A stretch of DNA of 64,000 nucleotides from Spirochaetaceae bacterium (GCA_011524535.1 WTKD01000010.1:1233-65232); one strand, 5' to 3'. Shown: positions 5,994 through 61,791, counted from the stretch's first letter. Made by a program: numbers and translations. Notes: generated by a model not told the origin, from the letters alone.

Positions 5994-6026
5994 AAAAGCC
6001 GGGTCCATAGCGATTCGGCTTTTTTT
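5994..6026 (+). terminator. Rho-independent terminator after paralog C
   Basis: Identical sequence to 4372-4404. Confidence 0.6.
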
Positions 6027-6173: not shown

Positions 6174-6202
6174 TTTACATTAAATTTTATATATACTATA
6201 CT
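6174..6202 (+). promoter_or_regulatory. Sigma70-like promoter of paralog D
   Basis: Identical to 4552-4580: TTTACA, 17-nt spacer, TATACT. Confidence 0.45.
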
Positions 6203-6278
6203 CTTACTTAGTGGAGGTTACCTATCTTCGCTATTCTGATGCGGATGTATACGTAACACCCCATACAAGGAGTTCTCT

Positions 6279-7709: not shown

Positions 7710-7754
7710 TAATTTCATTCTAATCCTGATCGGTTAATCATTCCGATTACACCA

Positions 7755-7784
7755 AAAGCCGAGTCATTATTGGCTCGGTTTTTT
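7755..7784 (+). terminator. Rho-independent terminator after paralog D
   Basis: Stem AAGCCGAG / CTCGGTTT followed by TTTT. Confidence 0.55.
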
Positions 7785-7935
7785 GTTATTTGTCGCCATA
7801 CCAATAAATCATGTAATACGTTTGATCACCTCGATAGATTTCTGAGCCCTTCTACCCCTTCTCAAGAAAAAGTCAAGAATATTTCCATCTGCCTAACTTC
7901 TTTTTTTACGTATTTACTTTTTATTTGTTTTTAAA

Positions 7936-7964
7936 TTTACATTAATTATTACATATACTATACT
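7936..7964 (+). promoter_or_regulatory. Sigma70-like promoter of paralog E
   Basis: TTTACA (7936-7941), 17-nt spacer, TATACT (7959-7964). Confidence 0.45.
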
Positions 7965-8039
7965 CATATCTAGCAGATATATCTTTCTGCACAATCTTGA
8001 TGTGGATATATGTTCCACACACCATATAAGGAGTTCTCT

Positions 8040-43384: not shown

Positions 43385-43558
43385 TCATACGTTCCTCCGT
43401 GAGATTTTCTCTTGTTCTACAATCCATCGGTCTATCTCGCTTTTACGAAATCGCCGTGCACTACCCACTTTGAAGCCCGGCACCTTGCCCTCAAACGCAA
43501 ATAGACAGGACGTCTTTTTAGCAATTTTGAAGTAATCGGCGAGTTCCTTCACGGTCAT
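43385..43558 (-). CDS. Excisionase/MerR-type small HTH DNA-binding protein
   Basis: MTVKELADYFKI.KKT.......GK.PGFKVG...RF.K.EIDRWI is the classic Xis-family HTH pattern. The start was chosen at the ATG at 43558, with 43576 as an alternative. Confidence 0.6.
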   Translation of the reverse strand: MTVKELADYFKIAKKTSCLFAFEGKVPGFKVGSARRFRKSEIDRWIVEQEKISRRNV

Positions 43559-44008
43559 AATGTCATCATTGGGCATAAGTTTACCGTCCTTCTCAGGATA
43601 TATGGATTGAAAATAATAGAAAATGGATGAATAATCAAGTAATTTATCGAGGAAATCACGTGATAAGACATGATCATGCAACAATCAGATTCTTTATTCA
43701 CCATCGGACTTTTCCACCTTTTTTTGGAGGGGCGCAATGCAAGCTTTTTTGATGTGAAGGCGCTGCGCGAAGATTTAGACAAGTTCGATACCGGCACTAC
43801 TGCATACTATTTTTTACAAAAACGCCACTACTGTATTTTTATGTTTGGTACGCAGACCATTTCGTGATACATTACTAGTAAAAGCAATCGAATTACAGAG
43901 TTTTATCGGGATGATCTTGAAGTTAAAAGATATAGCCATGGTTTCATCGAGTGTTACGTTTCGCTCTCGAATTGATGCATCTAAGGGTGGTGCCGTTAGA
44001 GTACTCAA

Positions 44009-44512
44009 ATGAAAGACCTTGGTGACGACAACTTCATGCACCTGAGCAAAAGCATCCACATCGACCACACCAAGCCTAAGCCCAATCAACTTACCAAGCT
44101 AGGGGATATTATTTTCCGCTCTCGTGACCAGACAAATACCGCTGCACTACTGAATGAAAATATGGAGAACACAATTGTGGCAGCTCCATTATTCCGTGTA
44201 CGGTCAGATGTAAAAAAGGTTGTGCCAAAATTTTTGCTTTGGTGGATCAATCAACCATCTTCGCAGTCGTATCTCGCATCCAGATCAAAAGGCACCGTGG
44301 TAAAAATGATCAGTAAGCAAAGTTTGGAAGATTTAAAAGTTAACTTACCATCATTTGAGAAGCAAGCAACCATAGTTAAACTTTTCAATCTCTCAATGCG
44401 AGAGCAACAGCTTTTAGAAGAAATTAAAAACCGTAGAGCGATCTATACCCAAGGAATTTTGATGCAGATAGTATCGCAAAACACAAAAAAGGTAACGGGG
44501 GCACAAAGATGA
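44009..44512 (+). CDS. hsdS: Half-size (single-TRD) type I specificity subunit, possibly split from an upstream 33-codon ORF (43911-44012)
   Basis: One target-recognition domain plus the conserved helix LPSFEKQ..IVKLF......LL. The stop overlaps the hsdM ATG (ATGA at 44509). Confidence 0.7.
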   Translation: MKDLGDDNFMHLSKSIHIDHTKPKPNQLTKLGDIIFRSRDQTNTAALLNENMENTIVAAPLFRVRSDVKKVVPKFLLWWINQPSSQSYLASRSKGTVVKMISKQSLEDLKVNLPSFEKQATIVKLFNLSMREQQLLEEIKNRRAIYTQGILMQIVSQNTKKVTGAQR

Positions 44513-46023
44513 CAAATGAAGCAATTAAACAACAAGACGTAAATAACGCTGCATGGGCTGCTTGCGACACCTTTCGTGGCGTGATGGATGCAGCTAGTTA
44601 TAAGGATTATATCCTGGTGATGCTATTCCTGAAATACATCTCGGATGCATGGAAGGATCATTATGAGGAATATCGCAAGCAGTATGGTGGTGACGATGTG
44701 CGTATTCACCGCAATCTAGGGCGTGAGCGTTTTATTCTGCCGAAAAATGCAAGTTTTTACGACCTCTATGAAAAGCGCAATGAAGCCAATATTGGTGAGC
44801 TGATTAACATCGCATTGGACTCAATTGAGACATCCAATAAAAGCAAGCTGGAAGGCGTATTTCGTAATATTGATTTTAACTCAGAAGCTAATCTGGGCAA
44901 AACCAAGGACCGTAACCGCCGCCTGAAAATGCTGCTGGAAGACTTCCACAAGCCTCAACTTGATATGCGCCCAAGCCGTATTTCTGAAGATGTTATCGGT
45001 AATGTTTATATTTACCTGATCGAACGATTTGCCTCTGATGCAGGTAAAAAAGCTGGGGAGTTCTACACCCCGCACAAAGTCTCTGAACTGGTTGCCAAAT
45101 TGTGTAAGCCAAAGGTTGGCGCTCGCATCTGCGACCCGGCATGCGGTTCGGGTGGTCTATTGATTGAGGCTGCCAAGGCTGTCGGTGACCGCAACTACGC
45201 TATCTACGGAATGGAAGTAAACGGCAGCACATGGGCTTTGTGCCGCATGAATATGTTCCTGCATGGGGCCGACTCAGCTCGAATTGAATGGTGCAATACG
45301 CTGACCTCACCAACATTGGTGGAAAATGATCGCCTGATGAAATTCGACAATATCGTCGCAAACCCGCCATTCTCGCTTGATAAGTGGGGCGCTGACGAAG
45401 CTGAGTCCGATGCATATAAGCGCTTCTGGCGCGGTGTACCGCCAAAATCAAAGGGTGATTATGCCTTTATCAGTCACATGATCGAGGCAGCTGTTGAGAA
45501 AAAAGGTCGTGTTGCCGTTGTTGTACCGCATGGGGTTCTGTTCCGTGGTGCTGCTGAAGGGCGCATCCGCGAAAAGCTGATCGAAGATAATTTGCTGGAT
45601 GCCGTCATTGGCCTGCCGGGTAATCTGTTCCCGACCACATCCATCCCGGTCGCTATTTTAATCTTTGACCGCTCCCGCGAGAAAGGCGGCGCCTTTGAGG
45701 ACCGCAAGGACGTTCTCTTCATTGATGCCAGCCAAGATTACCAACCGGGTAAAAACCAAAATGCCCTGATGGATGAACATATGAAGAAAATCCTGCACGC
45801 CTACGAAGCGCGTGAAGAGATTGAAAAATATGCTCATTTGGCAAGCTACGACGAACTGAAAGAAAATGATTTTAACCTGAATATCCCGCGCTATGTCGAC
45901 ACCTTTGAAGAAGAAGCAGAAATTGACATCGAAGCCGTTCAGCAAGAAATCGATACGCTCGAAGGTGAGTTGGCAGAAGTGCGCGGCAAGATGGCTAAGT
46001 TGCTGAAAGAGGTGAAAGCATGA
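44509..46023 (+). CDS. hsdM: Type I restriction-modification N6-adenine DNA methyltransferase subunit
   Basis: HsdM N-terminal domain, SAM motif DPACGSGG and catalytic NPPF (IVANPPFS). Confidence 0.92.
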   Translation: MTNEAIKQQDVNNAAWAACDTFRGVMDAASYKDYILVMLFLKYISDAWKDHYEEYRKQYGGDDVRIHRNLGRERFILPKNASFYDLYEKRNEANIGELINIALDSIETSNKSKLEGVFRNIDFNSEANLGKTKDRNRRLKMLLEDFHKPQLDMRPSRISEDVIGNVYIYLIERFASDAGKKAGEFYTPHKVSELVAKLCKPKVGARICDPACGSGGLLIEAAKAVGDRNYAIYGMEVNGSTWALCRMNMFLHGADSARIEWCNTLTSPTLVENDRLMKFDNIVANPPFSLDKWGADEAESDAYKRFWRGVPPKSKGDYAFISHMIEAAVEKKGRVAVVVPHGVLFRGAAEGRIREKLIEDNLLDAVIGLPGNLFPTTSIPVAILIFDRSREKGGAFEDRKDVLFIDASQDYQPGKNQNALMDEHMKKILHAYEAREEIEKYAHLASYDELKENDFNLNIPRYVDTFEEEAEIDIEAVQQEIDTLEGELAEVRGKMAKLLKEVKA

Positions 46024-46877
46024 ACCAAGTAACCAATCAACATCGCCAAACTTTTGAGGATATTCGTCAGTACAGAGAAGAAGGCCGTGAATTCTGGTCT
46101 GCCAGAGACCTGCTGCCTGTTTTGGAATATAGCAGCTGGGACAAGTTTGAGGCGGTTATTCGCAAAGCGATACAAGCCTGTGATAACTCGGGCATTCCAT
46201 CGGCAGACCATTTTTCCCAAGTCGGGAAAAAGGTCACCATCGGATCAGGAGCCGAGCGTCATATTTCAGACTATGACTGTCATCTCTCAAGATATGCCTG
46301 TTATCTGATTGTTCAAAATGGTGATCCGACAAAGCCAGTTATTGCGAACGGTCAGACATACTTTGCCTTGCAAACGCGCAGGCAGGAATTGGCAGATGAT
46401 TTAGCTTTCCAGCAACTGGATGAAGACAAAAAGCGTGTCTTCCTTCGTAATGAGCTGAAGGAGCATAACAAGCAGCTTGTTGAAGCCGCCAATCAGGCAG
46501 GCATTGAAAGCGGGTTGGATTTTGCGATCTTCCAAAACCATGGCTATCAAGGTCTTTATGGAGGACTGGATGCCAAGGGTATTCACCAGAAAAAGGGCCT
46601 AAAGAAACGTCAACAAATTCTTGATCATATGGGCAGTACCGAATTGGCAGCAAACCTGTTCCGCGCAACGCAGGCAGAAGAAAAGCTGCGCCGTGAAGGT
46701 ATAAAAGGCAAACAGAAGGCTAACCAAGCCCATTACGAGGTAGGCGCAAAAGTACGCCAAACCATTGAGGATTTGGGGGGCACCATGCCAGAGGAACTTC
46801 CAACACCAAAAACAAGCACCAAATCTCTTGAAAAACAACATAAGAAGCAGATCGGTGCGGGCGGTGGGGATGAATAA
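46020..46877 (+). CDS. dinD: DinD-like (DNA-damage-inducible protein D family) protein
   Basis: WSARDL....YS.W..F..VI.KA..AC.NSG......HF and SRYACYLIVQNGDP.KPVIA.GQTYFA.QTRRQE closely match my recollection of E. coli DinD. Confidence 0.75.
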   Translation: MNQVTNQHRQTFEDIRQYREEGREFWSARDLLPVLEYSSWDKFEAVIRKAIQACDNSGIPSADHFSQVGKKVTIGSGAERHISDYDCHLSRYACYLIVQNGDPTKPVIANGQTYFALQTRRQELADDLAFQQLDEDKKRVFLRNELKEHNKQLVEAANQAGIESGLDFAIFQNHGYQGLYGGLDAKGIHQKKGLKKRQQILDHMGSTELAANLFRATQAEEKLRREGIKGKQKANQAHYEVGAKVRQTIEDLGGTMPEELPTPKTSTKSLEKQHKKQIGAGGGDE

Positions 46878-48027
46878 CCAGAATTTACCAGATGACTGGA
46901 AAGTACTTCCTTTGTCTCAACTCGGTTCATTTTCAAAAGGGAAAGGCATTACCAAGTCTGATTTGCAAAATGAAGAGCTTCCATGCATACGATATGGAGA
47001 AATATATACGCTTCATCATCATTCAGTAAAAAGATTTCATTCGTTTATCAATACTGATGTAGCTAGAAGTAGTAAAAAGTTAAAGTTTAACGATTTGCTT
47101 TTTGCTGGATCTGGAGAAACGCTTGAGGAAATTGGAAAAGCTGTTGGCTATCGGCTAAAGCAAGAAGCTTTTGCGGGTGGAGATATAGTGATTTTGAGTT
47201 TAAAAGATCAATATAGAGCCGATTATATCGCCTACTATTTGAACACTTTGGGCAGAAAACAGATAAATAAACTAGGCACTGGACATTCCGTTGTTCATAT
47301 TTATTCGAGGGCTCTGGAAAAAGTATTTGTAATTTTACCTCCTCTTCATATTCAAGAATCTATTGTGGAGTATATTGAACAATGGGACACAGCCATTGAA
47401 AAAACCGAAGCGCTGATTGATGCCAAAGAGCGCCAATTCGGGTGGTTGAGATCTCAACTTATAAAATCTTGTAGCGGCAAAATCTATAAACTTGAAGAAC
47501 TTGAAGCCTTAAAGATCATAAAGCTCGGGCGTGGTGACGTCATTTCTAAAAAAGACTTTGAAAAGTATCCAGGAAGTTATCCAGTTTATTCATCTTCAGT
47601 GAAAAAGAATGGTGTTTTTGGCAAATACGGCAAATTTATGTTTGAACAAAAACTTATTACATGGTCGATAGATGGAGGTGGTGACTTTTTCTATAGACCG
47701 AAACACAAGTTCTCAGTGACGAACGTATGTGGATATATGACTGTAAATGAAGAGAAACTTGATTATGCATTTTTGACAGCACAACTTCAGTTACTACATG
47801 CACGTTTAGTTTTTGATTATCAGTACAAGGCACATCCAAGTGTGATTAGAAAGATTTATAAGGCAAAGCTTCCATCTCTGGAAGAACAAAAACGCATTGC
47901 CCATATCCTCAACACAGCTCAGCAGGAAATCACACTCCTCAAAAAGCTTTGCCGTAAATATCGCACGCAAAAGCGTGGGTTGATGCAAAAGCTACTTAGT
48001 GGACAACGGAAAATTAATCATGGATAA
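46870..48027 (+). CDS. hsdS: Type I specificity subunit, full length with two TRDs
   Basis: The ATG at 46870 lies 8 nt inside the dinD end. MNNQNLPDDWKVLPL is followed by two TRDs separated by the conserved helices LPPL..Q..IV and LPSLEEQKRIA.IL. Confidence 0.88.
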   Translation: MNNQNLPDDWKVLPLSQLGSFSKGKGITKSDLQNEELPCIRYGEIYTLHHHSVKRFHSFINTDVARSSKKLKFNDLLFAGSGETLEEIGKAVGYRLKQEAFAGGDIVILSLKDQYRADYIAYYLNTLGRKQINKLGTGHSVVHIYSRALEKVFVILPPLHIQESIVEYIEQWDTAIEKTEALIDAKERQFGWLRSQLIKSCSGKIYKLEELEALKIIKLGRGDVISKKDFEKYPGSYPVYSSSVKKNGVFGKYGKFMFEQKLITWSIDGGGDFFYRPKHKFSVTNVCGYMTVNEEKLDYAFLTAQLQLLHARLVFDYQYKAHPSVIRKIYKAKLPSLEEQKRIAHILNTAQQEITLLKKLCRKYRTQKRGLMQKLLSGQRKINHG

Positions 48028-49276
48028 CGGAAAACAAAAAGTAAGATTACTTACTTACAGTGAGCTTCTGGAAAAACTCAGTACTGATTCACCTAGTCAC
48101 TTATTGCTTGGAAATGGTTTCAATAATTCTTTGGGTGTAAAAACCAATTATTCAGAAATTTTTGCACAAATGAAAAGAACCTACTCAGGCTATGAACAAG
48201 TTGAAAGCTATCTTAAGGGTGAATATTTCGATATAGAAAAATTGATTGGTTATTTAAAAGGGCAGATTAACCATGATAATGAAGACTTTTTGCCAAGTTA
48301 CATTGAAAGAAAAGTAAAATTGGACTTTATGAATGCAACAAATGAGATTATTCAAGAAAGTATAAAAAACGTTTATCAAGATAATAATGAAAGTATTCAT
48401 TTACTGCTGAAAAATTTTACGAATTACTTCACACTTAATTATGATCCATTTTTATACCTTCTCCTGATGAAATTTAAAAAAGATGATGAAATTAAAAATG
48501 AGGTGTTAACGATTCAAAACACCTTTCTCTTTCAAGAAGAAGACTTGAATCAGGCTCAAAACAATATTTATAAAAAAATTAAACAGGCTAAAACAAATGG
48601 TAAGCTCACTATTAATGTAAACAACAACAATAAAACTGTAGATTTAAAATCGGTAAAAAAAACACAGTTTGTTTTATCAGTAAAAACCTATTTTCAAGAT
48701 GAAGCATGGAAGGGTAAAGATATAGAAAAAGTCTGTAATCAAATATGGAAAGAAGAAGCTAAGCAGTCAAAGCTAAAAGTTGATGACGGGTTTCGAGGAG
48801 AACAGTTAAAATTATATCAAGAAACTGAAGAACAAAACCTCTATTTTTTACATGGTGCTTTTCATATTGTTAAAAACAAAACCGATATTCAAAAAATTAT
48901 AGCCAAACAGAATAAATCTTTCATACAAAAATTAGAAAAGGCAATACACAGTGAAAGTAAAGATATTGTGTGTATTTTAACGAATAACTCCGAAGAGAAA
49001 AAAGTACAGATAGAGGAAAATAAATATTTAGAAAAATGTTTTGATGCTCTGTCTAAAATTGATGGAGCTTTAGTTATCCTAGGAAGTTCTCTGGCAGAAA
49101 ACGACAACCATATTTTTGAACAAATCAACAAAAGTTTTATAAGCAAGGTTTATATCTCTAGCTGCGAAGAAACTCACACAAAAGATTTGAATCGTGCCAA
49201 GGATGTATTCCCTAAAAAAAAGATAATCTTATTTGATTACAAAACTATTTCTTACAGAGAGGAAAACCAAAAATGA
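48020..49276 (+). CDS. SIR2-like protein, DUF4917-type (paralog 1), embedded in the type I R-M operon
   Basis: The ATG at 48020 lies 8 nt inside the hsdS end, and the stop overlaps the hsdR ATG (ATGA at 49273). Motifs LLLGNGF, NYFTLNYDPFLY, LYFLHGAFHI and GSSLAENDNHIFEQI. Confidence 0.7.
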   Translation: MDNGKQKVRLLTYSELLEKLSTDSPSHLLLGNGFNNSLGVKTNYSEIFAQMKRTYSGYEQVESYLKGEYFDIEKLIGYLKGQINHDNEDFLPSYIERKVKLDFMNATNEIIQESIKNVYQDNNESIHLLLKNFTNYFTLNYDPFLYLLLMKFKKDDEIKNEVLTIQNTFLFQEEDLNQAQNNIYKKIKQAKTNGKLTINVNNNNKTVDLKSVKKTQFVLSVKTYFQDEAWKGKDIEKVCNQIWKEEAKQSKLKVDDGFRGEQLKLYQETEEQNLYFLHGAFHIVKNKTDIQKIIAKQNKSFIQKLEKAIHSESKDIVCILTNNSEEKKVQIEENKYLEKCFDALSKIDGALVILGSSLAENDNHIFEQINKSFISKVYISSCEETHTKDLNRAKDVFPKKKIILFDYKTISYREENQK

Positions 49277-52200
49277 CCACCTTCCACCACACCGAAAAAC
49301 ATCTTTCCAAAATTCCCGCGCTGCAACTGCTGGCTAGTTGTGGCTATCAAATCCTGACCCCTCAAAAAGCCTTAGAAGAACGTAAAAACAAATACAGTAA
49401 TGTGCTATTAGAAAATATCCTTCGTCAGCAATTACAGAAATTCAACCGCATCCACTACAAGGGTAAGGACTATCACTTTTCAGAAGCCAATATTCAGAAA
49501 GCAATCCAGAAGATCAAAAAAGTCAAATATAACGGTCTGCAAAAGACCAATGAAATTATCTATGACCTCATTACCCTTGGCACCGCACTGGAGCAGACGG
49601 TCGAAGGCACCAGCAAAAGTTTTAACCTGAATTATATTGACTGGAAAGCACCATTTAATAACGTGTTTCATGTCGTGCCGGAATTCGCTGTAGGGCGTAA
49701 CCGTAGCGTTAAAAAGATTAGACCAGACATTGTTTTGTTCGTCAACGGCATCCCTTTGGCGGTGATTGAATGTAAATCCCCTACGGTGGAGGTTGAGCAA
49801 GCTGTTTCGCAAAACATCCGCAATCAGGGTGATGAATACATCCCAAAACTGTTTACCTATGTGCAATTGGTGATGGGTGTGAATAAGAACGCGGCTCAAT
49901 ATGCGACCACAGGTACACCTGCCAAATTCTGGGGCGTGTGGAAGGAGTTAGAAGACAAAGAAGACAAGATCACTAAAATCATCAATACGCTATTAGGCGA
50001 TGATAAAAAAAATGCACCATTCTCCGGTGAATTTGCACCTGCGCGTGGGCTCTTTGATGCGTTAGAAAATGAAGGTGAGCGCATGCTTACCGAACAGGAT
50101 AAAGCACTTTACAGCCTTTGTCGTCCGGAACGATTGCTGGAGCTGACCTATCGCTTTACGCTATTTGATGCGGGGATTAAAAAAATTGCGCGTTATCAAC
50201 AGTTCTTTGTGGTTCGCTCTACGGTTGATCGTATTAAGCATCGCGACAGTGAGGGTATCAGAACAGGCGGTGTTATCTGGCACACACAAGGCTCTGGTAA
50301 ATCCATCACCATGGCGATGCTGACACGCGCGCTCACTTTGGACATCGAGGTTGCGAATCCGCGCATCATCCTTGTAACGGACCGAGATGATCTGGATAAA
50401 CAGCTGAATAATACGTTTGCCGCCTGCGGTCTTTCTAAAAAACGTGCCACATCTGGTCGTAACCTTGTGAAACACCTGAAAGAAAAAATTGGCATTATCA
50501 CCACGCTCATTCATAAATTTGACAAAGGCTGGGCGTTCGAAAAATACGTCGATGAATCTCAGGACATTTTTGTACTAGTAGATGAAAGCCACAGGACAAA
50601 CTTTGGTTCGCTCGCAGCCAGAATGCGCCAGATGCTGCCAAACTCCTGCTATCTGGGCTTTACGGGTACACCGCTTCTGAAAAAAGAGAAAAATAGCTTC
50701 TTAAAATTTGGCGGAATGATCGAACCGCATTACTCCATCAAACAAGCGGTAAAAGACAAAGCAGTACTGCCATTGCTCTATGAAGGTCGTCACGTAGAAA
50801 TGGAGCAGAATAGAGCAGCTATCGACTTGTGGTTTGATCGCCATACATCAGATCTAAACAAAGATCAGCAGGCTGACCTGAAAAAGAAATATGCCCGCGC
50901 CGAGAGACTGAATAGATCTGATCAGGTTATTTATATGCGGGCCTTTGATGTCAGTGAGCATTATCGCGCCAACTGGCAAGGCACAGGCTTCAAAGCCCAG
51001 CTTGTGGCCCCCAGCAAAGCAGCAGCGATTAAGTATCATGAACACCTGAAGGATATTGGATTCGTTACATCTGAAGTTATTATTTCACCACCGGATATTC
51101 GTGAAGGCTATGAAAAAGTAGATGAAGGACCAACAGATGAAGTTGGCAAGTTCTGGGATAACATGATGAAGCGCTTTGGTTCCGAAGAGGAATATACCAA
51201 ACAGGTCATCAACCAGTTCAAATATGATAAAAAGCCGGAAATTCTGATCGTTGTTGATAAACTACTGACCGGATTTGATGCTCCAAAAAACACAGTTCTC
51301 TACCTTTGTCGCACGCTGCGCGAGCACGCTCTGTTACAGGCCATTGCGCGTGTGAACCGCTTACACGAAGGCAAAGACTTCGGGTATATCGTTGACTATG
51401 CCAGCGTTCTAGGTGAGCTGGATAAAGCCCTAACAATGTATGATGCGTTCGAAGGTTTTGACGAAGAAGACCTTTTGGATACGCTCGCTTCGGTTCACTC
51501 AGAAGTACAAAGGCTTCCTCAGCGCTATTCTGACTTATGGGATATCTTCCGAAAAGTAAAAAATAAGCATAATGAAGAGGCGTTCGAGGTTCTTCTGGCG
51601 GATGATGAGTTGCGTGATGACTTCTACGAAAGACTGGCTGAGTATAGTAAAACCCTCGGGATTGCGCTTTCAACTGACAAATTCATCAGAAAAACGGATG
51701 AAGCCAAGCTACAAACTTATAAGGGTGATCTGAAAAGATTCCAGAACCTGAAAAAATCAGTAAAGCTACGTTATGCAGAGGCCATCGACTACCGTGATTA
51801 CGAGCCTAAGATTAAAAAAATGCTCAATACGCATATTCAGGCCAATGAAGTCATTCAGCTCAATCCGCCTGTCGATATTTTTGACGATCAAAGTTTTGAT
51901 ACGGTCAAAAAAGGGCAAGGTATTCACCTTGGTACATCAACAGCTGCCAGAGCTGACACCATCGCCCATGCGACGAAAAAGGGCATCTTTAAGAAAATGA
52001 ATGAAGACCCTGCGTTTTATAAGAAGTTTTCAAAACTGATCCAGCAAGCCATTGATGACTTTAAAGCACGTCGCATCTCTGATCTCGATTATCTTAACAA
52101 GGTTAGTGATATTCGTGACTCAGTGGTTTTGAAAAAGCATGATAATGTCCCTGAAAGCATCCGCAACAATGATGAAGCATGCGCCTACTATGGGATGATG

Positions 52201-52464
52201 AAAGATTATTTTGCCAATGAAGGCCTGGAAGTGAAAGAACAGGCTATTGCCTATACGGCAGCGAATTCTCAGAAAGCATTTGAACAGGAAAAAATGGTAG
52301 ACTTTTGGGATAATGAAAATGCTATCAACAAGGTTAAAGGAAAAATTGATGATTATCTTTACGACGAATTAAAAGACAAACAAGGTATAGAATTGACGAC
52401 AAAACAAATGGATGAAATCATTGACAAAACGATGCAGATAGCCAAAAGTAGGAGGCATGCATAA
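49273..52464 (+). CDS. hsdR: Type I restriction endonuclease/translocase subunit
   Basis: 1063 aa. N-terminal PD-(D/E)XK region (PDIVLFVNGIPLAVIECK), SF2 helicase motifs TQGSGKS and VDESHR, and the typical C-terminal helical domain. Confidence 0.92.
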   Translation: MTTFHHTEKHLSKIPALQLLASCGYQILTPQKALEERKNKYSNVLLENILRQQLQKFNRIHYKGKDYHFSEANIQKAIQKIKKVKYNGLQKTNEIIYDLITLGTALEQTVEGTSKSFNLNYIDWKAPFNNVFHVVPEFAVGRNRSVKKIRPDIVLFVNGIPLAVIECKSPTVEVEQAVSQNIRNQGDEYIPKLFTYVQLVMGVNKNAAQYATTGTPAKFWGVWKELEDKEDKITKIINTLLGDDKKNAPFSGEFAPARGLFDALENEGERMLTEQDKALYSLCRPERLLELTYRFTLFDAGIKKIARYQQFFVVRSTVDRIKHRDSEGIRTGGVIWHTQGSGKSITMAMLTRALTLDIEVANPRIILVTDRDDLDKQLNNTFAACGLSKKRATSGRNLVKHLKEKIGIITTLIHKFDKGWAFEKYVDESQDIFVLVDESHRTNFGSLAARMRQMLPNSCYLGFTGTPLLKKEKNSFLKFGGMIEPHYSIKQAVKDKAVLPLLYEGRHVEMEQNRAAIDLWFDRHTSDLNKDQQADLKKKYARAERLNRSDQVIYMRAFDVSEHYRANWQGTGFKAQLVAPSKAAAIKYHEHLKDIGFVTSEVIISPPDIREGYEKVDEGPTDEVGKFWDNMMKRFGSEEEYTKQVINQFKYDKKPEILIVVDKLLTGFDAPKNTVLYLCRTLREHALLQAIARVNRLHEGKDFGYIVDYASVLGELDKALTMYDAFEGFDEEDLLDTLASVHSEVQRLPQRYSDLWDIFRKVKNKHNEEAFEVLLADDELRDDFYERLAEYSKTLGIALSTDKFIRKTDEAKLQTYKGDLKRFQNLKKSVKLRYAEAIDYRDYEPKIKKMLNTHIQANEVIQLNPPVDIFDDQSFDTVKKGQGIHLGTSTAARADTIAHATKKGIFKKMNEDPAFYKKFSKLIQQAIDDFKARRISDLDYLNKVSDIRDSVVLKKHDNVPESIRNNDEACAYYGMMKDYFANEGLEVKEQAIAYTAANSQKAFEQEKMVDFWDNENAINKVKGKIDDYLYDELKDKQGIELTTKQMDEIIDKTMQIAKSRRHA

Positions 52465-53225
52465 TGAAAAGTATTGCCTGCACCATCAGCTACGGAAAAA
52501 CAGACATTGACTACGAACTGTTGCTGATGAAACGCACATCGTTAGAAATTGCGGTCCATCCTGACAAAAGTGTCGTGGTCAAAGCGCCGAAGACTTCAAC
52601 GCTTGAAGCTATTGAAGGCAAAATCAAGAAAAGAGCCCGATGGATTAAGCGGCAAATTGCTTATTTTAACCAGTTCTATCCAAGGACCCCGGACAAGAAA
52701 TATTTAGGCGGTGAAAGTCACCTTTATCTAGGTCGACAATACTTTCTTAAAATAGAGGTGTCTGACAAAGATACGTTGATTGTGGGGAATGGGCATTACT
52801 GTACCGAGTCGATACCCGAGAAACCGGAACATATAAGAAATGGATATTTTTTTATCGAGTCGACATCCAGCAAACCGGAACATATAAAGAAGATTTTAGA
52901 TTCTTGGTATAGAAGACAAGCGAAAATGTATCTACCCAAAATTTTTAATGATTGCTGGGATGGTTTCAAAAAAGGAGCCCTGAATAAACCAAATCTGAAA
53001 TTACAAAAAATGGATAAGCGCTGGGGCAGTTTGTCAATTAATGGCAGACTGACACTTAATGTCAATCTTATTAAAACGCCCAAGGAGTGTATTGAATATG
53101 TTGTTATTCACGAACTTTGCCACCTCATCCACCATAATCATAGTACCGAGTTTTATAAACTACTCGACCGCACATTGCCTGATTGGATGAAGCGTAAACA
53201 CAAGCTCGAAATGACTTTAATCTAG
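52464..53225 (+). CDS. YgjP/DUF45-type (M48-like) zinc metallopeptidase
   Basis: WGS......L..N..L...P...I.YV..HEL.HL...NHS..F motif with HELCH zinc site. The start overlaps the hsdR stop (TAATG). Confidence 0.8.
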   Translation: MKSIACTISYGKTDIDYELLLMKRTSLEIAVHPDKSVVVKAPKTSTLEAIEGKIKKRARWIKRQIAYFNQFYPRTPDKKYLGGESHLYLGRQYFLKIEVSDKDTLIVGNGHYCTESIPEKPEHIRNGYFFIESTSSKPEHIKKILDSWYRRQAKMYLPKIFNDCWDGFKKGALNKPNLKLQKMDKRWGSLSINGRLTLNVNLIKTPKECIEYVVIHELCHLIHHNHSTEFYKLLDRTLPDWMKRKHKLEMTLI

Positions 53226-54564: not shown

Positions 54565-56439
54565 ATGAAGCTGCAAAAAATAAAAATACAAAATTATAAA
54601 TCCATCAGACAAATTGACTTTGAGGTAGTCAAATGTGGAGATAGCTATACAACCGTTCTACTTGGAAAAAATGAAACAGGAAAAAGTAATATTTTAAGAG
54701 CAATGGCACTTCTCACCTGTCCAAAAGACGAGGTGGATTTTTTAAAAATCCGAAATCAAGATGCTAAAACTAACATCGTTTCATCCTCGTTTGAAATGGA
54801 ATGCGATCAAGATAATGAAATTGCAGAGTATAAAAAATCTATATCTAAAAAATCTAAACTACCAGAAGATATCGTCTCTCGCATTAGAGTTAAAAAAGCT
54901 GTTAAAGAAGTCTGCATAGAAGAAAACGAAGTTCGATTTTCTGAAAAGTGGCATTTTGAATTAGATACAATACCACTAAATGCCTATGTTTACAAAGGAA
55001 ATGAAGAAGTCGCGCTTAAAATTGGAGTGGCTGATTTAAACTCATATCAAGAGCTTACAATTGAAATACTTAAAAGAATGATTGAGGTGCCTTTAGAAGA
55101 CTTCTTTTCGACACATGAACCAAAAGTATCTTTCTGGAGTGCATCTAAAAATCACTTAATTAATGGGAAAATTTCTTTAAAAAATTTTGCCCAAACGCCG
55201 AATACGTATCCTGCGTTAAGAAATATGTTTTATTTGTGTGGTTTCGATACAAATCAAACAATAGAAACACAAATAGAAAACGCTGACAAAAATGATAGCC
55301 TTAGAATTCGTCTTCAAAAAACTTTACAAAAGAAAACGACCGAGTATATAAATAAAATATGGCAAAAGCATCCAGTGAAAATTGCAGTAGAAATACTTTC
55401 TGATAATGAAATGAATGCAACTGTAACGGTTCAGGATGAGGGTAATGATTATGGAGTTTATGCAATGTCTGATCGAAGTCAGGGATTTCAACAGTTTATT
55501 TCTCTTATCTTAAGCTTATCGATTGCCAATCACACACAGAAAATCAAAAACCAGCTTATCCTTATTGACGAACCTGAAACCCATCTTCATCCTTCAGGCA
55601 TTCGTTGGATGATGAAGGAACTTTTGAAAATCGGAGCAAATAATTATCTCTTTATTGCGACTCATTCCAACTTTATAATTGATCAGAAACATCCAGAAAG
55701 ACATATTCTTTTGAAAAAAAATAGCGTTAATGGAACATACAAAAAACACATCGAAAACAATCAGAATATGTTCGATGATGAAATATTAAAAGATGCATTT
55801 GGAATTAATGTTATAAGGGATTTCCTGTCACCTCAGAAAATCCTTGTCGAAGGGGGCTCTGACAAAGTACTTATAAATAAAGCATTGAAATGTATAAGTG
55901 GAGAATCCAACATAACGATTTCCAATGGAAAAGGAGATAATCTAACCGCCGCCGCCAGCATGTTGGCTCTCAATGATATTTATCCATTAGTAATTACAGA
56001 CGATGACAAAAAGGGCAAAAAAATCAAGGACGATATTATCAAAATTGATGGGAAGTTTTCTACAGAAAATGTATTCACAATTCGAGATCTGAATGGCGAT
56101 CTTAACGAAGGTAGTACAATAGAGGATACCCTTCCTAAGGAGTATGTCCTATCAAAAATAAATCAATGTCTGAAACATAATTCTGTTATTGAAATTAATG
56201 CTAAAATTTTAGACGACAGTAAACCCTTTATGGGTCAGGTTAAAGCGTTCCTAAATAAACATATTTCAGAGGGTGATGGCAAAAAACAAAAGAAAGAAAA
56301 AGTATCTTCTGTTTTAGAGAATATAAAGATAAGAGTATCTGAAGATTATAATGCTAACGCTATTGCAGAGAAAGCTCCACTTTTAAAGACTCTCGCTGAA
56401 AAAATTCTAGAACATGTAAGACGTCTTGAAAATTTTTAA
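54565..56439 (+). CDS. OLD-family nuclease (ABC-type ATPase fused to TOPRIM), stand-alone
   Basis: N-terminus IKIQNYKSIR...LLGKNETGKSNILRA (Walker A), LILIDEPETHLHPS (Walker B/D-loop), and C-terminal TOPRIM ILVEGGSDK...ITDDD. Confidence 0.8.
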   Translation: MKLQKIKIQNYKSIRQIDFEVVKCGDSYTTVLLGKNETGKSNILRAMALLTCPKDEVDFLKIRNQDAKTNIVSSSFEMECDQDNEIAEYKKSISKKSKLPEDIVSRIRVKKAVKEVCIEENEVRFSEKWHFELDTIPLNAYVYKGNEEVALKIGVADLNSYQELTIEILKRMIEVPLEDFFSTHEPKVSFWSASKNHLINGKISLKNFAQTPNTYPALRNMFYLCGFDTNQTIETQIENADKNDSLRIRLQKTLQKKTTEYINKIWQKHPVKIAVEILSDNEMNATVTVQDEGNDYGVYAMSDRSQGFQQFISLILSLSIANHTQKIKNQLILIDEPETHLHPSGIRWMMKELLKIGANNYLFIATHSNFIIDQKHPERHILLKKNSVNGTYKKHIENNQNMFDDEILKDAFGINVIRDFLSPQKILVEGGSDKVLINKALKCISGESNITISNGKGDNLTAAASMLALNDIYPLVITDDDKKGKKIKDDIIKIDGKFSTENVFTIRDLNGDLNEGSTIEDTLPKEYVLSKINQCLKHNSVIEINAKILDDSKPFMGQVKAFLNKHISEGDGKKQKKEKVSSVLENIKIRVSEDYNANAIAEKAPLLKTLAEKILEHVRRLENF

Positions 56440-57617: not shown

Positions 57618-59336
57618 TTAAAAGCGTATTCCTAGCAAGCTTCCTGTTTCATCTTCATCAGAAAGTTTTAGCTTAATATGTTCATCGAAATTGAAATCAT
57701 CATGGAAATCGTCGTATGGTACCCTATCTGAATTAATTGCCATGATATATTGGAAATTGTATTTTTGTGCTTTCTGAGCGGCCTGCTCAATAGCATGAGC
57801 AATTTGACGTTCATCTACACCTTCATAAATGATACTATCATGGACTAGAAAGTCGATATTTCTTCCCAATATTTTTTGCATACACATAACCGTAAGGTCG
57901 TAACAAAAAATCATCATCTTTCCGATTCCAGCACCACGGCCACCAGGAATATCTACCTTAAAGTCATATCCTTTTTCAGAAATATCGATTATAAACTCCC
58001 CAGGAATACCATACAAAGCTTTAGCTGACTCGTTAAACAATCTGATGACCTGTTCCCAGAATTCTCTTTTTTCCTCATAGTCAATGGTAGCATCTTTATC
58101 TAGTTCCAATGTCGATGACTTAATTTCTTTACGTTTTTTTGTTATGTTTCGAATATCTTCTATCTTATTCGAAAGATGTTCACGCTTTTTATATATCTTT
58201 GCATGCTCTTCTTGCAAACGAGAATGTTCCTCAAGTGCACCATGAGTTTTAAGTATTTTCATGCGAGAGGCTCGTTTGTCGGTCAATGTTCGAATAAGAC
58301 CTTCTCTTTGAGATATTCCATTCTCGATTCGGGATATTTCGGCATCTAGAAAGTAGGCACGGTTCTTAATAATTTTCTCATGAAAGACCGACGCTTCCTT
58401 CAAAGTACGCTTTACTGACTCTGGAAAAACCAACCCCGTTTCTTCATAAATAGCTCCTAGTTTACCGTTATCAGGTGGTGTCTCTTCAGATATAGAGCTT
58501 TTATACTGTTGAAGCTTTTGGGACTCAACAACATTCTGATTAGCTAGCTGGTGCAATTCGTTAGTTAATTTGTTGGCTTCAACTTGAATGTCTTTGTATT
58601 TTTCATGAACTTTAAAGTTCGATAAGATTTTTCGGCTCCTTGACAGCTTTTCTTCAAGTTCTACTTTTTTCGCCTCAAGTGCACCTTGTGTTTCATATAC
58701 CCCAGCCTTGATTGAAGCATCCAGGTTTCTAAGCGCTTTGTCTTTCTTATCTAACTTACACCACTCATTGGCATACTTGTGATCTAATCCAAAAAAGAAC
58801 GCATTATTGACATATGCACTGTTATTAGCCTGGCTAGAAAAAAACTTTAATGGCTTACTATATGCATCGTTTCCAGAACGCAAGAAATAAGATAGCAGAC
58901 TGCGAACTGAAAGATCGCTATCTTCTGGCAGATGAAAAAAAGCTTGACCAAGCAACTGTTTCCACTTATCCAACCTAAGAAAGTGTGTATTTGTTTCCTC
59001 ATCAAGATCAGGTTCAATAGACCAATTATTGGTATGACCTTTGATGAGAAACTTTGTTGGATTGTCAATTGCACGTGTTACTTGAACACGATTTTCTAGC
59101 AATGTAATATCGATGGTAAAATCCCAGCCAGATAGCTCGTCGATACACAGACCGCTTCGAGCCGCATCACTGCCTAGGCAAAAATTTATAATTACAATTA
59201 AGGTCGATTTGCCTCGACTATTCGTAGTTTTCTTCTGACCAGAAGTTTCTTGCCTTTCTGCAATAACAACATTCAGCCCCTTATCAAACTCAATGTTTTT
59301 AAAAGAAGACTTATTTGAAGAAATACCGTGAATCAT
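57618..59336 (-). CDS. DUF2326/YydD-like ABC (SMC-like) ATPase with a long coiled-coil insert; ATPase of an ABC-3C-type system
   Basis: N-terminal FKNIEF.KGLNVV.A......NS.GKST (Walker A), a 250-aa coiled-coil middle, and C-terminal FLVHDS (Walker B). The ATG overlaps the upstream stop (ATGA). Confidence 0.7.
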   Translation of the reverse strand: MIHGISSNKSSFKNIEFDKGLNVVIAERQETSGQKKTTNSRGKSTLIVIINFCLGSDAARSGLCIDELSGWDFTIDITLLENRVQVTRAIDNPTKFLIKGHTNNWSIEPDLDEETNTHFLRLDKWKQLLGQAFFHLPEDSDLSVRSLLSYFLRSGNDAYSKPLKFFSSQANNSAYVNNAFFFGLDHKYANEWCKLDKKDKALRNLDASIKAGVYETQGALEAKKVELEEKLSRSRKILSNFKVHEKYKDIQVEANKLTNELHQLANQNVVESQKLQQYKSSISEETPPDNGKLGAIYEETGLVFPESVKRTLKEASVFHEKIIKNRAYFLDAEISRIENGISQREGLIRTLTDKRASRMKILKTHGALEEHSRLQEEHAKIYKKREHLSNKIEDIRNITKKRKEIKSSTLELDKDATIDYEEKREFWEQVIRLFNESAKALYGIPGEFIIDISEKGYDFKVDIPGGRGAGIGKMMIFCYDLTVMCMQKILGRNIDFLVHDSIIYEGVDERQIAHAIEQAAQKAQKYNFQYIMAINSDRVPYDDFHDDFNFDEHIKLKLSDEDETGSLLGIRF

Positions 59337-59560
59337 TTTTCAACCCTCCTAATCAGGAGGTTATCCAATTCTACGACTCCAATGATATAAAGCATATCAA
59401 GCGTTAAAACGAAGCGCTCATAATTTTCAATCGAAGAAACCTCTCTAACAACTTCCCAAAGTGCAGACACAGATTTTGGGGTGCGTAATTCTTGTAGAAT
59501 TACCGCACCTGCTCCGATCAACGCTTGATTTGTTGGAATATGTTTGGTTGGTAAAATCAT
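59333..59560 (-). CDS. Small (75 aa) middle component of the ABC-3C-type system
   Basis: It is coupled by ATGA overlaps to both flanking genes. The size and position match the wHTH-like middle components of ABC-3C systems. Confidence 0.5.
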   Translation of the reverse strand: MILPTKHIPTNQALIGAGAVILQELRTPKSVSALWEVVREVSSIENYERFVLTLDMLYIIGVVELDNLLIRRVEK

Positions 59561-60324
59561 TGTTCAAACACTTCACATATTTCAAACAGGTGAACTACTA
59601 TCATCTCCCCGGCAGCTCTTAGGTTGAAGTCATGGGAGTTACCACTTGCAAAGTAAACCATGGATTTGAATAAATCGTCCGAGAGAATATTTTCATCTAC
59701 AAGACGATTATATTCTTTTCTAAATCCCGCTTTCAATCTATCAGGGAAATTTGCATCTCTTTTCGAGCGCGCTTCAATAAACTGTCCAACTACATGGCTT
59801 CTGCTTAATCCCCTAGCGAGAGAGGTATGTGTGCTCTCTGTGAGATTATTTTTTTTTATTTTTTGTCGTAGAGGAGTAAGTGCAAAATTTTCTTCCTCCG
59901 ATGTTAAATTGAGCTTGGGAATTGCCTTGTTGAGAATTGCCTTGATAGTCAGCTCTAGTTCTTCAAATCCAATGTTCATCCCTGCTACGGTAAGCGATTC
60001 GACTACCCATGATTCATGGTCTTTTTTCATCTTACGTAGAATTTCTGCAGTATATTTATCCTCTGCTCCATCGATGGTGTCATGGTGTGTGCCACACAAC
60101 AATATCCAGTTATCATAGGTATCGAGTTTATCTTGAGGATAAGAACTATCGGCTCGCGGACCATTCTTACTATGTGCAACTATATGAGCTATCTTACCAA
60201 TCTGCTTCTTCTCTCCTGACACATCTTCTACTTCTAGAATGATCTGGCAGCCTGGAAAACTACAGCGTAAAGCAGCATTTCCATATAAAATTTTTACGTC
60301 TGATTGTGGATATTTTCTCCCCAT
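59557..60324 (-). CDS. HNH endonuclease-domain protein with a helical C-terminal domain (ABC-3C effector component)
   Basis: HNH motif AHIVAHSKNGP........DNWILLCGTHHDTID preceded by a Cys pair (CSFPGC). The ATG is at 60324, and the track start at 60330 is TTG. Confidence 0.7.
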   Translation of the reverse strand: MGRKYPQSDVKILYGNAALRCSFPGCQIILEVEDVSGEKKQIGKIAHIVAHSKNGPRADSSYPQDKLDTYDNWILLCGTHHDTIDGAEDKYTAEILRKMKKDHESWVVESLTVAGMNIGFEELELTIKAILNKAIPKLNLTSEEENFALTPLRQKIKKNNLTESTHTSLARGLSRSHVVGQFIEARSKRDANFPDRLKAGFRKEYNRLVDENILSDDLFKSMVYFASGNSHDFNLRAAGEMIVVHLFEICEVFEQ

Positions 60325-60504
60325 ACTCAAGTCCGTACTCCACAGTTATTTTCACCATACACTATCATTTTCAATGATTCAATTTCTTTAGAGGGTTTTG
60401 TTATATTTATGATGCTTTAAAATGCACAGGATCATTAAAACCCGAGGGAAAACTCTTCTGGTTCTTAAAATTCTTGATCCGAAAATTAATCGTTAAGTAT
60501 CTAG

Positions 60505-61791
60505 CTATGTAGTGCTCGTCTTAGTATAAGAAACGGTAGTGTAATCGAATAGCACTATTTTTTTATTCCCAAAAAGCTCTTTGGCTCTTTTTTTGTCTTC
60601 TTCATAGCTTTCCGAACAACTAGAAAGGTAAATCGTTTCTACCGCGCTTTTATTGATTTGTTCAAAAATGTGATTATCATTTTTGTCTAAAGAGCTTCCA
60701 AAAATGGTTAAGTCACCGCTCAGGGTGGGCAGAACGTCAAAACCTTTCTCTAAGTACGTACTGTTTTGTATTTGGTTTTTCTTTTCCTCAGATGTCCCGC
60801 TAAAGACTATAACCATCTTCTGCCATCCGGTATACACTTCTTGAGCTACCCGTTCCTGAAAAGTACTTTTCTCTGTTCGCGTTATTCTCTGGATGGTGTT
60901 ATTCCTTTCAACGATGTGAAATGCTCCATGCAAAAAATATAGATTTTGCTGGTTTGATGCGTCAAATGTGTATAAATATTTTTCCTTTCTGGAAAATCCG
61001 TCATAAGGGATAGTTTCTTTAGAAGATTCTACTGGGGGAAGATCAAACAAATCAGGCGTTTCTTCTGCATCATTGTGTGTGTGAGATGCCTGTGCATTAT
61101 CACCGTTTGAGTTTTTTTCTTCATTTGTAAGATGATCATAAGATTTTCCTATCAGGTAGTCAGCGTAAATAGCGTAATCAGACCATTCCTTTTTTGCCCA
61201 ATCTCTCATTATTTCAAAGTAAACCCTCTTTGAATATTTATATACAGGGTGTATATATTCCCCTTGGTCTGATACGAAGAGGTTTTTATTCATCAATGCT
61301 AAAATTTCTGGTAATTTAATTTTTTCTAGCAGTAAAAGATACAAGAGTGGGTCGTAATTCAGTGTAAAATAATTCGTGAAATGATCTAATAGTTTGAAAA
61401 CACCTTTATTGGAAAAGGTTTCGTCTTTTTTATCAAATCCTTCAGTTATTATCTTCATAGCTGCATATATAAAGTCTTGTTTAATTTCATCCTCAAGACG
61501 TCTTTTTATGAATTCATAACGACTCTTAGAGGCATTCGAGATTACTTCCATCAATTGGCGAGGCAATTTTTCAATGTCAAAATTGTCTTCTTTGAGCCTC
61601 GCTTCTATGCTTAGATATTCTGGATGAGATTTTTTAATTTTTGAAAAAATATTTTCATAGCTTGTGTCGATCTTCAGGGAAATGTTAAACCCGTTTCCAA
61701 GCAGCAAATGATGATCCCGCTTATTGTTTTCTAATCTTTGTAACAATCCGTCATAAGTAATTAGCTTGTTTTCTTCTTGAGCGATATTCAT
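60505..61791 (-). CDS. SIR2-like protein, DUF4917-type (paralog 2)
   Basis: It shares LLLGNGF, FDIEKL, NYFTLNYDPLLYLLL, QNLYFLHGAFHIV, SEEKK.QI....YLEK.FD, GSSL..NDNHIFEQINKS and LFDY.T.SY with the 48020-49276 protein. By eye the overall identity is only about 35-40 percent. Confidence 0.7.
   Translation of the reverse strand: MNIAQEENKLITYDGLLQRLENNKRDHHLLLGNGFNISLKIDTSYENIFSKIKKSHPEYLSIEARLKEDNFDIEKLPRQLMEVISNASKSRYEFIKRRLEDEIKQDFIYAAMKIITEGFDKKDETFSNKGVFKLLDHFTNYFTLNYDPLLYLLLLEKIKLPEILALMNKNLFVSDQGEYIHPVYKYSKRVYFEIMRDWAKKEWSDYAIYADYLIGKSYDHLTNEEKNSNGDNAQASHTHNDAEETPDLFDLPPVESSKETIPYDGFSRKEKYLYTFDASNQQNLYFLHGAFHIVERNNTIQRITRTEKSTFQERVAQEVYTGWQKMVIVFSGTSEEKKNQIQNSTYLEKGFDVLPTLSGDLTIFGSSLDKNDNHIFEQINKSAVETIYLSSCSESYEEDKKRAKELFGNKKIVLFDYTTVSYTKTSTT

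Follow-up and report, generated by a model that had tools for sequence, protein, structure and literature searches.

The gene at positions 48020 to 49276 (+) of a 64,000-nucleotide stretch of DNA from Spirochaetaceae bacterium (GCA_011524535.1, WTKD01000010.1:1233-65232; the whole stretch is referred to below as the window) is a long-form member of the DUF4917 / PDC-S21 family. It encodes a protein of 418 amino acids (aa) with a SIR2 fold and is located between hsdS and hsdR of a type I restriction-modification (R-M) operon. Here we present the features of the gene and its junctions, the conserved residues and predicted structure of the protein and the genomic contexts of its relatives, together with an assessment of its probable function. 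A preliminary description of the window, made from the sequence alone, is taken up where the present results bear on it.

The frame of 418 aa runs from an ATG at 48020 to a TGA at 49274-49276, as seen both in the list of open reading frames (ORFs) and in the raw sequence. An in-frame GTG at 47999 would allow an extension of 7 residues, but the ATG at 48020 is preferred because the N-termini of homologues align with it. At the 5' end the gene overlaps hsdS, which ends at 48027, by 8 nucleotides (nt), and at the 3' end its stop codon overlaps the ATG of hsdR (49273-49275) in the sequence ATGA. Both overlaps had been reported in the preliminary description and both were found again in the ORF list and the raw sequence. 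By our own estimate stop codons occur at a frequency of about 0.09 per codon at the composition of this gene, which puts the chance probability of such a frame at about 1e-17; with this value and 549 homologues, the 418-codon frame is not a chance ORF. An exact-sequence look-up found the protein not on record. The metagenome assembly ERZ27295575 (ENA) contains an identical fragment at the end of a contig with the same upstream genes, and the hsdS gene call is identical on an independent metagenome contig. A 15-nt near-repeat, GTGGACAACGGAAAA / ATGGATAACGGAAAA (13 of 15 positions identical, 21 nt apart, window 47999-48034, +), spans the end of hsdS and the start of the DUF4917 gene, the 5' end of which is thereby echoed within the tail of hsdS; it could be an insertion or recombination scar.

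The DUF4917 gene is part of a string of seven genes (44009-53225) that consists of an hsdS fragment, hsdM, a dinD-like gene, hsdS, the DUF4917 gene, hsdR and a gene for a YgjP-like peptidase, with overlaps at six of six junctions (4, 4, 8, 8, 4 and 1 nt). HsdM, HsdS with two target recognition domains (TRDs) and HsdR are complete, each with full-length Pfam matches. The type I methyltransferase subunit is encoded by hsdM (44509-46023, +; N6_Mtase, E-value (E) 2e-102; HsdM_N, E 4e-28), the specificity subunit of 385 aa by hsdS (46870-48027, +; read from the ATG at 46870; Methylase_S in two stretches, E 1.7e-25) and the restriction and translocase subunit of 1063 aa by hsdR (49273-52464, +; SWI2_SNF2, E 3e-75; HSDR_N, E 3e-40; T1R_D3-like, E 9e-22). 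An AGAGGA element resembling a Shine-Dalgarno sequence for hsdR sits within the 3' end of the DUF4917 gene. A promoter and terminator scan of the operon gave no signal above shuffled controls and is neutral on an internal promoter; one weak terminator-like hairpin is located at 49046-49068, inside the DUF4917 gene. Because all junctions overlap and no promoter or terminator signal exceeds the controls, co-transcription and translational coupling of the DUF4917 gene with the restriction genes is the natural reading of the sequence.

The protein matches the Pfam model DUF4917 (PF16263) with 53.4 bits against a gathering cut-off of 28 (E 3.6e-14), the model aligning with residues 268-396 only, which is the C-terminal third. 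It also matches the PADLOC model PDC-S21 with 150 bits (E 2.3e-44), and NCBIfam contains no model for it. The DUF4917 assignment that had been made from the overall pattern is therefore upheld by two model collections. Among 5.8 billion proteins 549 relatives were detected, the nearest non-identical one with about 62% identity (E 1e-161) and almost all of them 405-435 aa long. A profile search of 1.84 billion cluster representatives yielded 2,156 clusters at E<=1e-3 and 147 at E<=1e-30. Since the longest sequence among the best 150 representative clusters has 502 aa, none of these 150 appears to be fused to another domain. For the analysis of conservation 110 relatives were aligned, with identities to the window protein down to 42%. 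All 110 are matched by DUF4917, and 22 of them also by AbiH (best E 5.2e-6). The preliminary description had read the motifs as those of SIR2_2-type domains: a SIR2_2 match is present in 8 of the 110 relatives (best E 7.6e-6) and absent from the window protein itself, which likewise gives no match to the AbiH model at E<=0.01. An Imm26 match from Pfam (E 0.0097, below the cut-off) was rejected as noise.

Across the alignment 29 positions are invariant. The glycine-rich loop G31-N32-G33 (48110-48118, +) follows strand beta-1, modelled at residues 26-30, and is the predicted NAD phosphate-binding loop; N32 is invariant and G31 and G33 are conserved in at least 90% of the 110 relatives, and the GNG motif is invariant in the long and short forms of DUF4917. 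The counterpart of the sirtuin TQNID motif is N140-Y141-D142 (48437-48445, +), with N140 as the predicted catalytic Asn; it follows strand 135-138, N140 is invariant and D142 present in at least 90% of the 110 relatives, and both are invariant in the long-plus-short alignment. H278-G279 (48851-48856, +), at the end of strand 274-276, corresponds to the catalytic His of sirtuins (HG motif) and is invariant in the 110 relatives as well as in long and short forms. The fourth element, G355-S-S-L...N361-D362-x-H364 (49082-49111, +), combines a GSS loop, as in the LGSSL of Sir2Tm, with a family-specific NDxH motif; G355, D362 and H364 are invariant. When three annotated short plasmid-borne DUF4917 proteins are added, the motifs LLLGNGF, TxNYD, LHG and GxS...DxH remain invariant. 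The four motifs named in the preliminary description are all present in the translation (LLLGNGF at 28-34, NYFTLNYDPFLY at 135-146, LYFLHGAFHI at 274-283 and GSSLAENDNHIFEQI at 355-369), and the GxG / NYD / LHG signature derived from them withstands comparison with the family, in the canonical order and with each motif placed after its strand.

An AlphaFold2 model built from the alignment has a mean pLDDT (predicted local distance difference test) of 87 and a pTM (predicted template-modelling score) of 0.79. Its motif placement is that of the SIR2 topology, with the succession strand-GNG, strand-NYD, strand-HG and strand-GSS. In a Foldseek search of the PDB the top 19 matches are all to the SIR2 subunit of the E. 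coli SIR2-HerA (Nezha) system (E 5e-7 to 6e-4, probability 1.0); these alignments extend over the whole length, with template-modelling (TM) scores of 0.36-0.49 on query length. KomC, DSR2, Sir2Tm, PfSir2A and ThsA follow at E 0.02-0.4. The SIR2 fold proposed earlier thus agrees with the structure comparison, in which the closest relative is the SIR2-HerA subunit and ThsA and DSR2, which had been named for comparison, are weaker matches. The SIR2-HerA structures (PDB 8sub, 8su9, 8j4u, 8sxx) share with the window protein a length of about 400 aa, the SIR2 fold and the lack of a zinc module, and the solved protein is an NADase effector. They differ in sequence (11-13% identity) and in setting: there is no HerA beside the window gene, whose neighbours are hsdS and hsdR, HsdR being the DNA-translocating one, nor did the neighbouring genes inspected in related loci include a HerA gene. 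No CxxC is present in this protein or in the second DUF4917 protein of the window described below; the first has four scattered Cys and the second one, of which only C318 is conserved. As no CxxC pair exists, the zinc module of sirtuin deacylases, which consists of two such pairs, is absent, likewise in defence NADases.

Between the Asn and His motifs the protein carries a clade-specific insertion (48470-48814, +; approximately residues 151-265) of about 100 aa relative to the family models of 311-336 positions. It is modelled as a helix, a beta-hairpin and two helices, is absent from the short forms and is a candidate for a sensory or regulatory element. A separate model of residues 150-268 (pLDDT 73) had no structural counterpart (best E 1.8). 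The second long-form DUF4917 / PDC-S21 gene of the window (60505-61791, -) encodes a paralogue of 428 aa (Pfam DUF4917, E 5.8e-19; PADLOC PDC-S21, E 1e-42) that is 35% identical to the first copy and retains every core motif; between the two paralogues the insertion is 22% identical and the core 42-47%. No hsd operon surrounds this paralogue, which is flanked by a PD-Lambda-5_B-like Dam methylase gene and an ABC-3C system. Plasmids (L069, L070 and L071; loci are given by L numbers) carry short canonical DUF4917 genes (323-349 aa), likewise in defence surroundings: Hhe and DUF4297-ATPase genes on either side in Vibrio europaeus, hsdR directly upstream in Methylobacter and neighbouring toxin-antitoxin pairs in Leptospira.

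The genomic contexts of relatives were surveyed by a pattern-plus-tblastn scan of one genome per species, which gave 67 loci from many bacterial phyla and some archaea. Hsd genes were detected with iterative hidden Markov models (HMMs) built from the Hsd proteins of the window, and neighbourhoods that are not type I were scanned with Pfam. Hsd-HMM matches stand beside the DUF4917 gene in 43 of the 67 loci; three of these are large fused methyltransferases and not classical type I genes, which leaves a type I context in 40 of 67. Where at least 1.5 kilobases (kb) are available on both flanks, Hsd-HMM matches are present in 30 of 49 loci. The common order is hsdM-(x)-hsdS-DUF4917-(x)-hsdR, with hsdS directly preceding DUF4917 in at least 25 loci; hsdR is downstream in 30, immediately adjacent in 11. 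The slot between hsdS and hsdR, to which the preliminary description had drawn attention, is accordingly a strongly recurrent arrangement.

At least nine further loci adjoin R-M genes of other types, type III, IIG and IIS among them. They include a type III arrangement mod-DUF4917-res (L046), a ResIII gene downstream (L032), an Eco57I-type IIG enzyme that precedes DUF4917 (L016), a PLD-SNF2 helicase with a large methylase (L038) and an AlwI endonuclease (L027); N6/N4 methylases are found near the DUF4917 genes of L001, L009 and L063. R-M-linked loci thereby amount to about 73%, roughly three quarters. Other defence neighbours are TIR-STING (L028), NB-ARC/TPR (L064), AAA_21 (L042) and RhuM (L037) genes, and four loci (L006, L050, L051 and L053) have plainly non-defence neighbours and no R-M genes nearby. 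For a random gene we estimate the chance of such R-M linkage at far below 1%; the occurrence in the embedded slot is strongly non-random. The genes that separate DUF4917 from hsdR vary and include Schlafen/AlbA_2-HATPase (3 loci) and Fic/SoFic (2 loci) genes, RhuM/PDC-S05, an ABC-3C pair (PDC-M68) and a Ppl-like gene. Because these intervening genes differ between loci, DUF4917 is regarded as a single-gene unit in a slot of varied cargo; a conserved two-gene system was rejected, as the genes adjacent to DUF4917 differ from locus to locus.

The G+C content of the DUF4917 gene is 29.0% (25.8% at third codon positions), compared to 47.7% for hsdM, 43.4% for hsdR and 41.2 +/- 3.3% for the window, of whose 64 kb the gene is the 1257-bp stretch with the lowest G+C content. 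Among the relatives the DUF4917 gene ranges from 25 to 39% (25-31% in most loci) independently of the host, whereas hsdM and hsdR range from 28 to 57%. It is lower than hsdM and hsdR in 36 of the 36 loci measured (among L002-L060), by 12.5 points in the mean, even where the hsd genes exceed 50%. At the same loci the identity to the window proteins is 39-52% for DUF4917, 27-36% for HsdM and 24-32% for HsdR, with L005 as the sole exception. In a neighbour-joining tree type I contexts occur across the whole tree and other contexts as tips scattered over it; L001, the closest genomic relative with 58% identity, lies outside type I operons. That an AT-rich cassette had been swapped into a conserved slot, as suggested by eye in the preliminary description, is in line with both the base composition and the better conservation of the cargo. 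Since the cargo is better conserved than its host and AT-rich in all 36 loci measured, it appears to be a mobile cassette that moves between unrelated R-M operons, and this signature argues against co-evolved docking to one Hsd complex. A tblastn search of 50,697 phage genomes gave no match to the DUF4917 protein and a Foldseek search of BFVD nothing below E 0.3, so that there is no evidence for a phage-carried DUF4917 protein.

The family has been catalogued before. Payne et al. (2024, bioRxiv 10.1101/2024.01.29.577857) described 145 untested PDC candidates, derived from genes located within BREX, DISARM and type I R-M systems. The name PDC-S21 is absent from the main text of that study, and the terms PDC-S21 and DUF4917 do not occur in the accessible parts of its supplementary tables. 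The window protein is a direct member of PDC-S21, a family that was derived by the same guilt-by-embedding logic, and is distinguished by belonging to the long-form clade with the insertion. The only experimental DUF4917 paper found concerns SliP (Cjj81176_0779) of C. jejuni, described as a 'secreted sirtuin' (Sci Adv 2023, PMC10421069). Directly after sliP comes the type I R-subunit gene Cjj81176_0780, and the two genes are transcribed together; in deacetylation reactions in vitro, purified SliP decreased NAD+ about 2-fold, and mutants in G24 or G26 of its G-N-G loop (residues 24-26) lose activity (PMC10421069). SliP was interpreted as a zinc-stimulated lysine deacetylase that is secreted into neutrophils in a flagellum-dependent manner and binds histone H3 (PMC10421069). 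It resembles the window protein in its DUF4917 assignment, the GNG loop and the hsdR operon, and differs as a short form of 37 kDa. The preliminary description had known of no characterised DUF4917 system embedded in a type I operon; SliP, co-transcribed with hsdR and shown to consume NAD+, qualifies that statement, although the protein was interpreted as a secreted deacetylase. Given that the family had been catalogued before and that biochemical work exists on one member, DUF4917 in the type I slot is a good new example and not a new kind of system.

The explanation that we favour, with slightly better than even confidence, is that the DUF4917 gene is a mobile single-gene SIR2-fold NAD+-consuming effector that forms a self-triggering second defence layer co-expressed with restriction. 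It would be a horizontally mobile cargo that occupies, in an intact type I operon, the permissive slot between hsdS and hsdR. Phage infection would activate the protein and lead to consumption of NAD+, as with the SIR2 effectors of SIR2-HerA, Thoeris, DSR2 and probably AbiH, and the infected cell would be arrested by the loss of NAD+ once restriction fails. The trigger is probably sensed by the protein itself, with the variable insertion or the helical domain as the likely sensor. No specific Hsd complex would be needed for latency, and the embedding would ensure co-expression and co-transfer with the R-M genes. The gene, its junctions, its family and fold, the invariant residues of catalytic type, the enrichment of contexts and the signature of mobility are results of the analysis, and the NADase output, the defence role and the autonomy of the protein are inferred.

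Known SIR2 effectors offer partial parallels for such a protein. ThsA and DSR2 share the SIR2 catalytic fold and the Asn/His pair with the window protein, and their output is NAD+ depletion. ThsA, however, has a C-terminal SLOG sensor and depends on the signal of its TIR partner ThsB, whereas the window protein is a single domain with an orphan insertion, and no SLOG or TIR match was found in the DUF4917 protein or its operon; DSR2 has about 1000 aa including a sensor domain of about 700 aa, against 418 aa here. AbiH (PF14253) is a lactococcal single-gene abortive infection protein with a predicted sirtuin fold and demonstrated phage resistance (review PMC13064643). It is likewise a single-gene SIR2-like protein, with the cross-matches among the 110 relatives mentioned above, but it is found on conjugative elements and is not described as R-M-embedded.

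Several observations weigh against the favoured explanation. The TM scores of the Foldseek matches are moderate (<0.5). Sequence searches of the PDB with the protein and with the 110-sequence profile returned no SIR2 entry but only spurious matches to L20, Piwi and designed proteins, and hhalign of the family profile against Sir2Tm (its sequence verified as identical to 1yc5_A) gave a non-significant probability of 1% with only LGSSL aligned. The sole DUF4917 biochemistry, that of SliP (PMC10421069), reports a lysine deacetylase and secreted effector and not a free NADase. Literature searches found no paper testing DUF4917 or PDC-S21 in phage defence, and later work leaves out PDC systems as unvalidated. 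The tight coupling to hsdS and hsdR, together with the high share of R-M contexts, could equally mean functional dependence on R-M.

The preliminary description had compared the gene with that of PrrC of EcoprrI, for which both the genetic position (hsdM-hsdS-X-hsdR) and the idea of an embedded second-line effector are the same. The latency of PrrC through binding to Hsd has been demonstrated. By analogy, the SIR2 enzyme would be held inactive on the Hsd complex or the R-M motor until Ocr, ArdA or Stp releases the NADase. The slot shared with prrC (established knowledge; Payne et al. 2024) is consistent with such a guard, and the overlapping codons with hsdS and hsdR favour stoichiometric co-production. 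At least 25 loci in which hsdS stops within a few tens of nucleotides of the DUF4917 start point in the same direction, as does the R-M linkage, usually with a specificity or methylase gene preceding and a motor or nuclease gene following, also in the type III and type IIG loci L046 and L016. The closest solved structure is moreover a SIR2 protein regulated by a bound DNA translocase, HerA. On the other hand, the host Hsd subunits of the cargo clade are only 24-36% identical to each other and the R-M architectures differ, which makes a conserved docking surface difficult to envisage. Other cargo often separates DUF4917 from hsdR, some members have no R-M genes nearby (L006, L050, L051, L053), the second window copy is outside the hsd operon, and no DUF4917-Hsd fusion occurs among the best 150 representative clusters (maximum 502 aa). 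PrrC itself combines an ABC ATPase with an anticodon nuclease, domains that are absent from the SIR2-fold window protein, and is almost exclusively embedded in type I operons (Payne et al. 2024, bioRxiv 10.1101/2024.01.29.577857), compared to 40 of 67 loci for the DUF4917 clade, which also occurs with other R-M types and alone. A PrrC-like mechanism with latency imposed by Hsd and release by anti-restriction proteins is thereby somewhat weakened; in our judgement the analogy is a reasonable minority reading, but unlikely.

A broader version of the guard would not depend on one partner. Long-form DUF4917 proteins could be generic guards that read the state of whichever ATP-dependent R-M machine is co-encoded (type I, III or IIG/ISP) and deplete NAD+ upon an anti-restriction block. 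Sensing would address a feature common to the methylase and specificity or motor parts, or the DNA intermediates that these machines make. The principle of PrrC would thereby extend, with another output, to several classes of R-M. We regard this possibility as distinctly unlikely. A corollary, if it were true, is that SliP would be primarily a defence protein and not a dedicated virulence effector.

A further alternative is that the protein is, like SliP, an NAD-dependent protein deacylase, acting either in bacterial regulation or, once secreted, as an effector directed at a host, and that its place in the R-M operon is incidental. SliP shares the GNG motif and has reported deacetylase activity, NAD+ consumption, secretion and histone H3 binding (PMC10421069), and the catalytic His and Asn are common to true sirtuins. 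The zinc-binding Cys cluster, however, is absent from both window copies, the best fold matches are to defence NADases and not to deacylases, and the family occurs in environmental and symbiont bacteria and in archaea without an animal host. DUF4917 is in addition overwhelmingly linked to R-M or defence genes, SliP itself being co-transcribed with hsdR, and SliP is a short form of the family, whereas the window protein has the extra insertion. We consider a deacylase function improbable.

The coupling to hsdS and hsdR and the recurrent placement beside several R-M types could also reflect an R-M accessory enzyme, which would tune restriction (alleviation or self-protection) without killing the cell by NAD+-dependent ADP-ribosylation or deacylation of an Hsd subunit or of DNA. 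Some SIR2-family enzymes are ADP-ribosyltransferases. Most type I systems, however, have no DUF4917 gene, the cargo moves independently of its hosts and some members stand alone, and the slot is shared with classical toxic effectors (Fic, Schlafen-like, ABC-3C), which makes an accessory role quite improbable. A selfish hitchhiker, that is, an AT-rich mobile gene without current host function tolerated between hsd genes, would fit the unameliorated low G+C content in every host and the scattered contexts, but is very improbable indeed given the intact full-length ORFs, the 29 invariant positions in 110 sequences and the about 2,156 representative clusters, as invariant positions and intact ORFs across so divergent a family indicate strong purifying selection on the catalytic-type residues.

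If DUF4917 is a working NADase, type I operons would carry interchangeable suicide effectors in a fixed slot, a situation far wider than the PrrC paradigm, and the single hsd operon described here holds two embedded genes, the dinD-like gene and DUF4917. The protein would be a compact single-gene SIR2 effector, and two paralogues in one island with a shared core and a differing insertion offer a handle on specificity. A possible guarding of host R-M systems by embedded genes becomes directly testable, and SliP, the only studied DUF4917 member, is open to re-interpretation in view of its hsdR operon. As PADLOC already lists the family among its unvalidated candidates, the practical value is moderate.

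The other genes of the string are as follows. It opens with a half-size hsdS-like ORF of 167 aa with one TRD (44009-44512, +; Pfam Methylase_S, E 2.3e-5), which overlaps the start of hsdM by 4 nt; repeat searches of 43-64 kb detected no shufflon-type inverted repeats between this fragment and hsdS. The second embedded cargo gene (46020-46877, +) is dinD-like with a Bro-N domain (Pfam Bro-N; NCBIfam DNA damage-inducible protein D, E 1e-133; PADLOC PDC-S13, E 4e-119). The layout hsdM-dinD-hsdS-DUF4917-hsdR also occurs in L018 and L052, and weaker partial dinD-like matches are present at the equivalent position in L040, L043 and L060 (metagenome-assembled genomes of Bacteroidota). The final gene of the string encodes a YgjP-like zinc metallopeptidase (52464-53225, +; Pfam YgjP-like, E 4e-53) and overlaps hsdR by 1 nt, its first base being the last one of the hsdR stop codon. 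Within it, a direct repeat of 49 nt (52788-52887; copies 78% identical, spacing 51 nt) gives rise to a peptide duplication (…PEKPEHI… / …SSKPEHI…). L005 likewise has a YgjP-like gene after hsdR and also carries an HsdS fragment upstream.

The region from 43 to 64 kb is a defence island in a chromosomal setting, with genes for PGI, UvrC, an AddAB-like pair and other housekeeping functions upstream. At its left edge, beside a photolyase gene, is a small HTH_17 (excisionase/AlpA-like) gene (43385-43684, -). Neither an integrase nor a flanking tRNA was observed close to the island, the tRNAs of the window being confined to 15.5-15.9 kb, and an Rfam scan of 43-64 kb gave no RNA element. Downstream of the string follow a stand-alone OLD-family gene (54565-56439, +) with an AAA_15 ATPase and an OLD-like TOPRIM domain (PADLOC Old, E 1e-28; G+C content likewise low, 32.7%) and a three-gene ABC-3C system (57618-60330, -) composed of an HNH + CTD10 effector (PDC-M68A, E 4e-76), a middle gene of 75 aa and a DUF2326 ABC ATPase (PDC-M68B, E 4e-184). 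In L007 a PDC-M68 pair sits between DUF4917 and hsdR. Beyond the second DUF4917 gene the window ends with a stretch (62392-63988, -) that holds a D12-class (Dam-class) adenine methyltransferase (PADLOC PD-Lambda-5_B, E 3e-108) and, just upstream of it, an ORF of 244 aa without family match that ends about 12 nt from the window edge. At the opposite end of the window five consecutive ORFs of 430-499 aa (1114-9509, +), three of them with a GLUG motif and without other assignment, have the appearance of a paralogue array.

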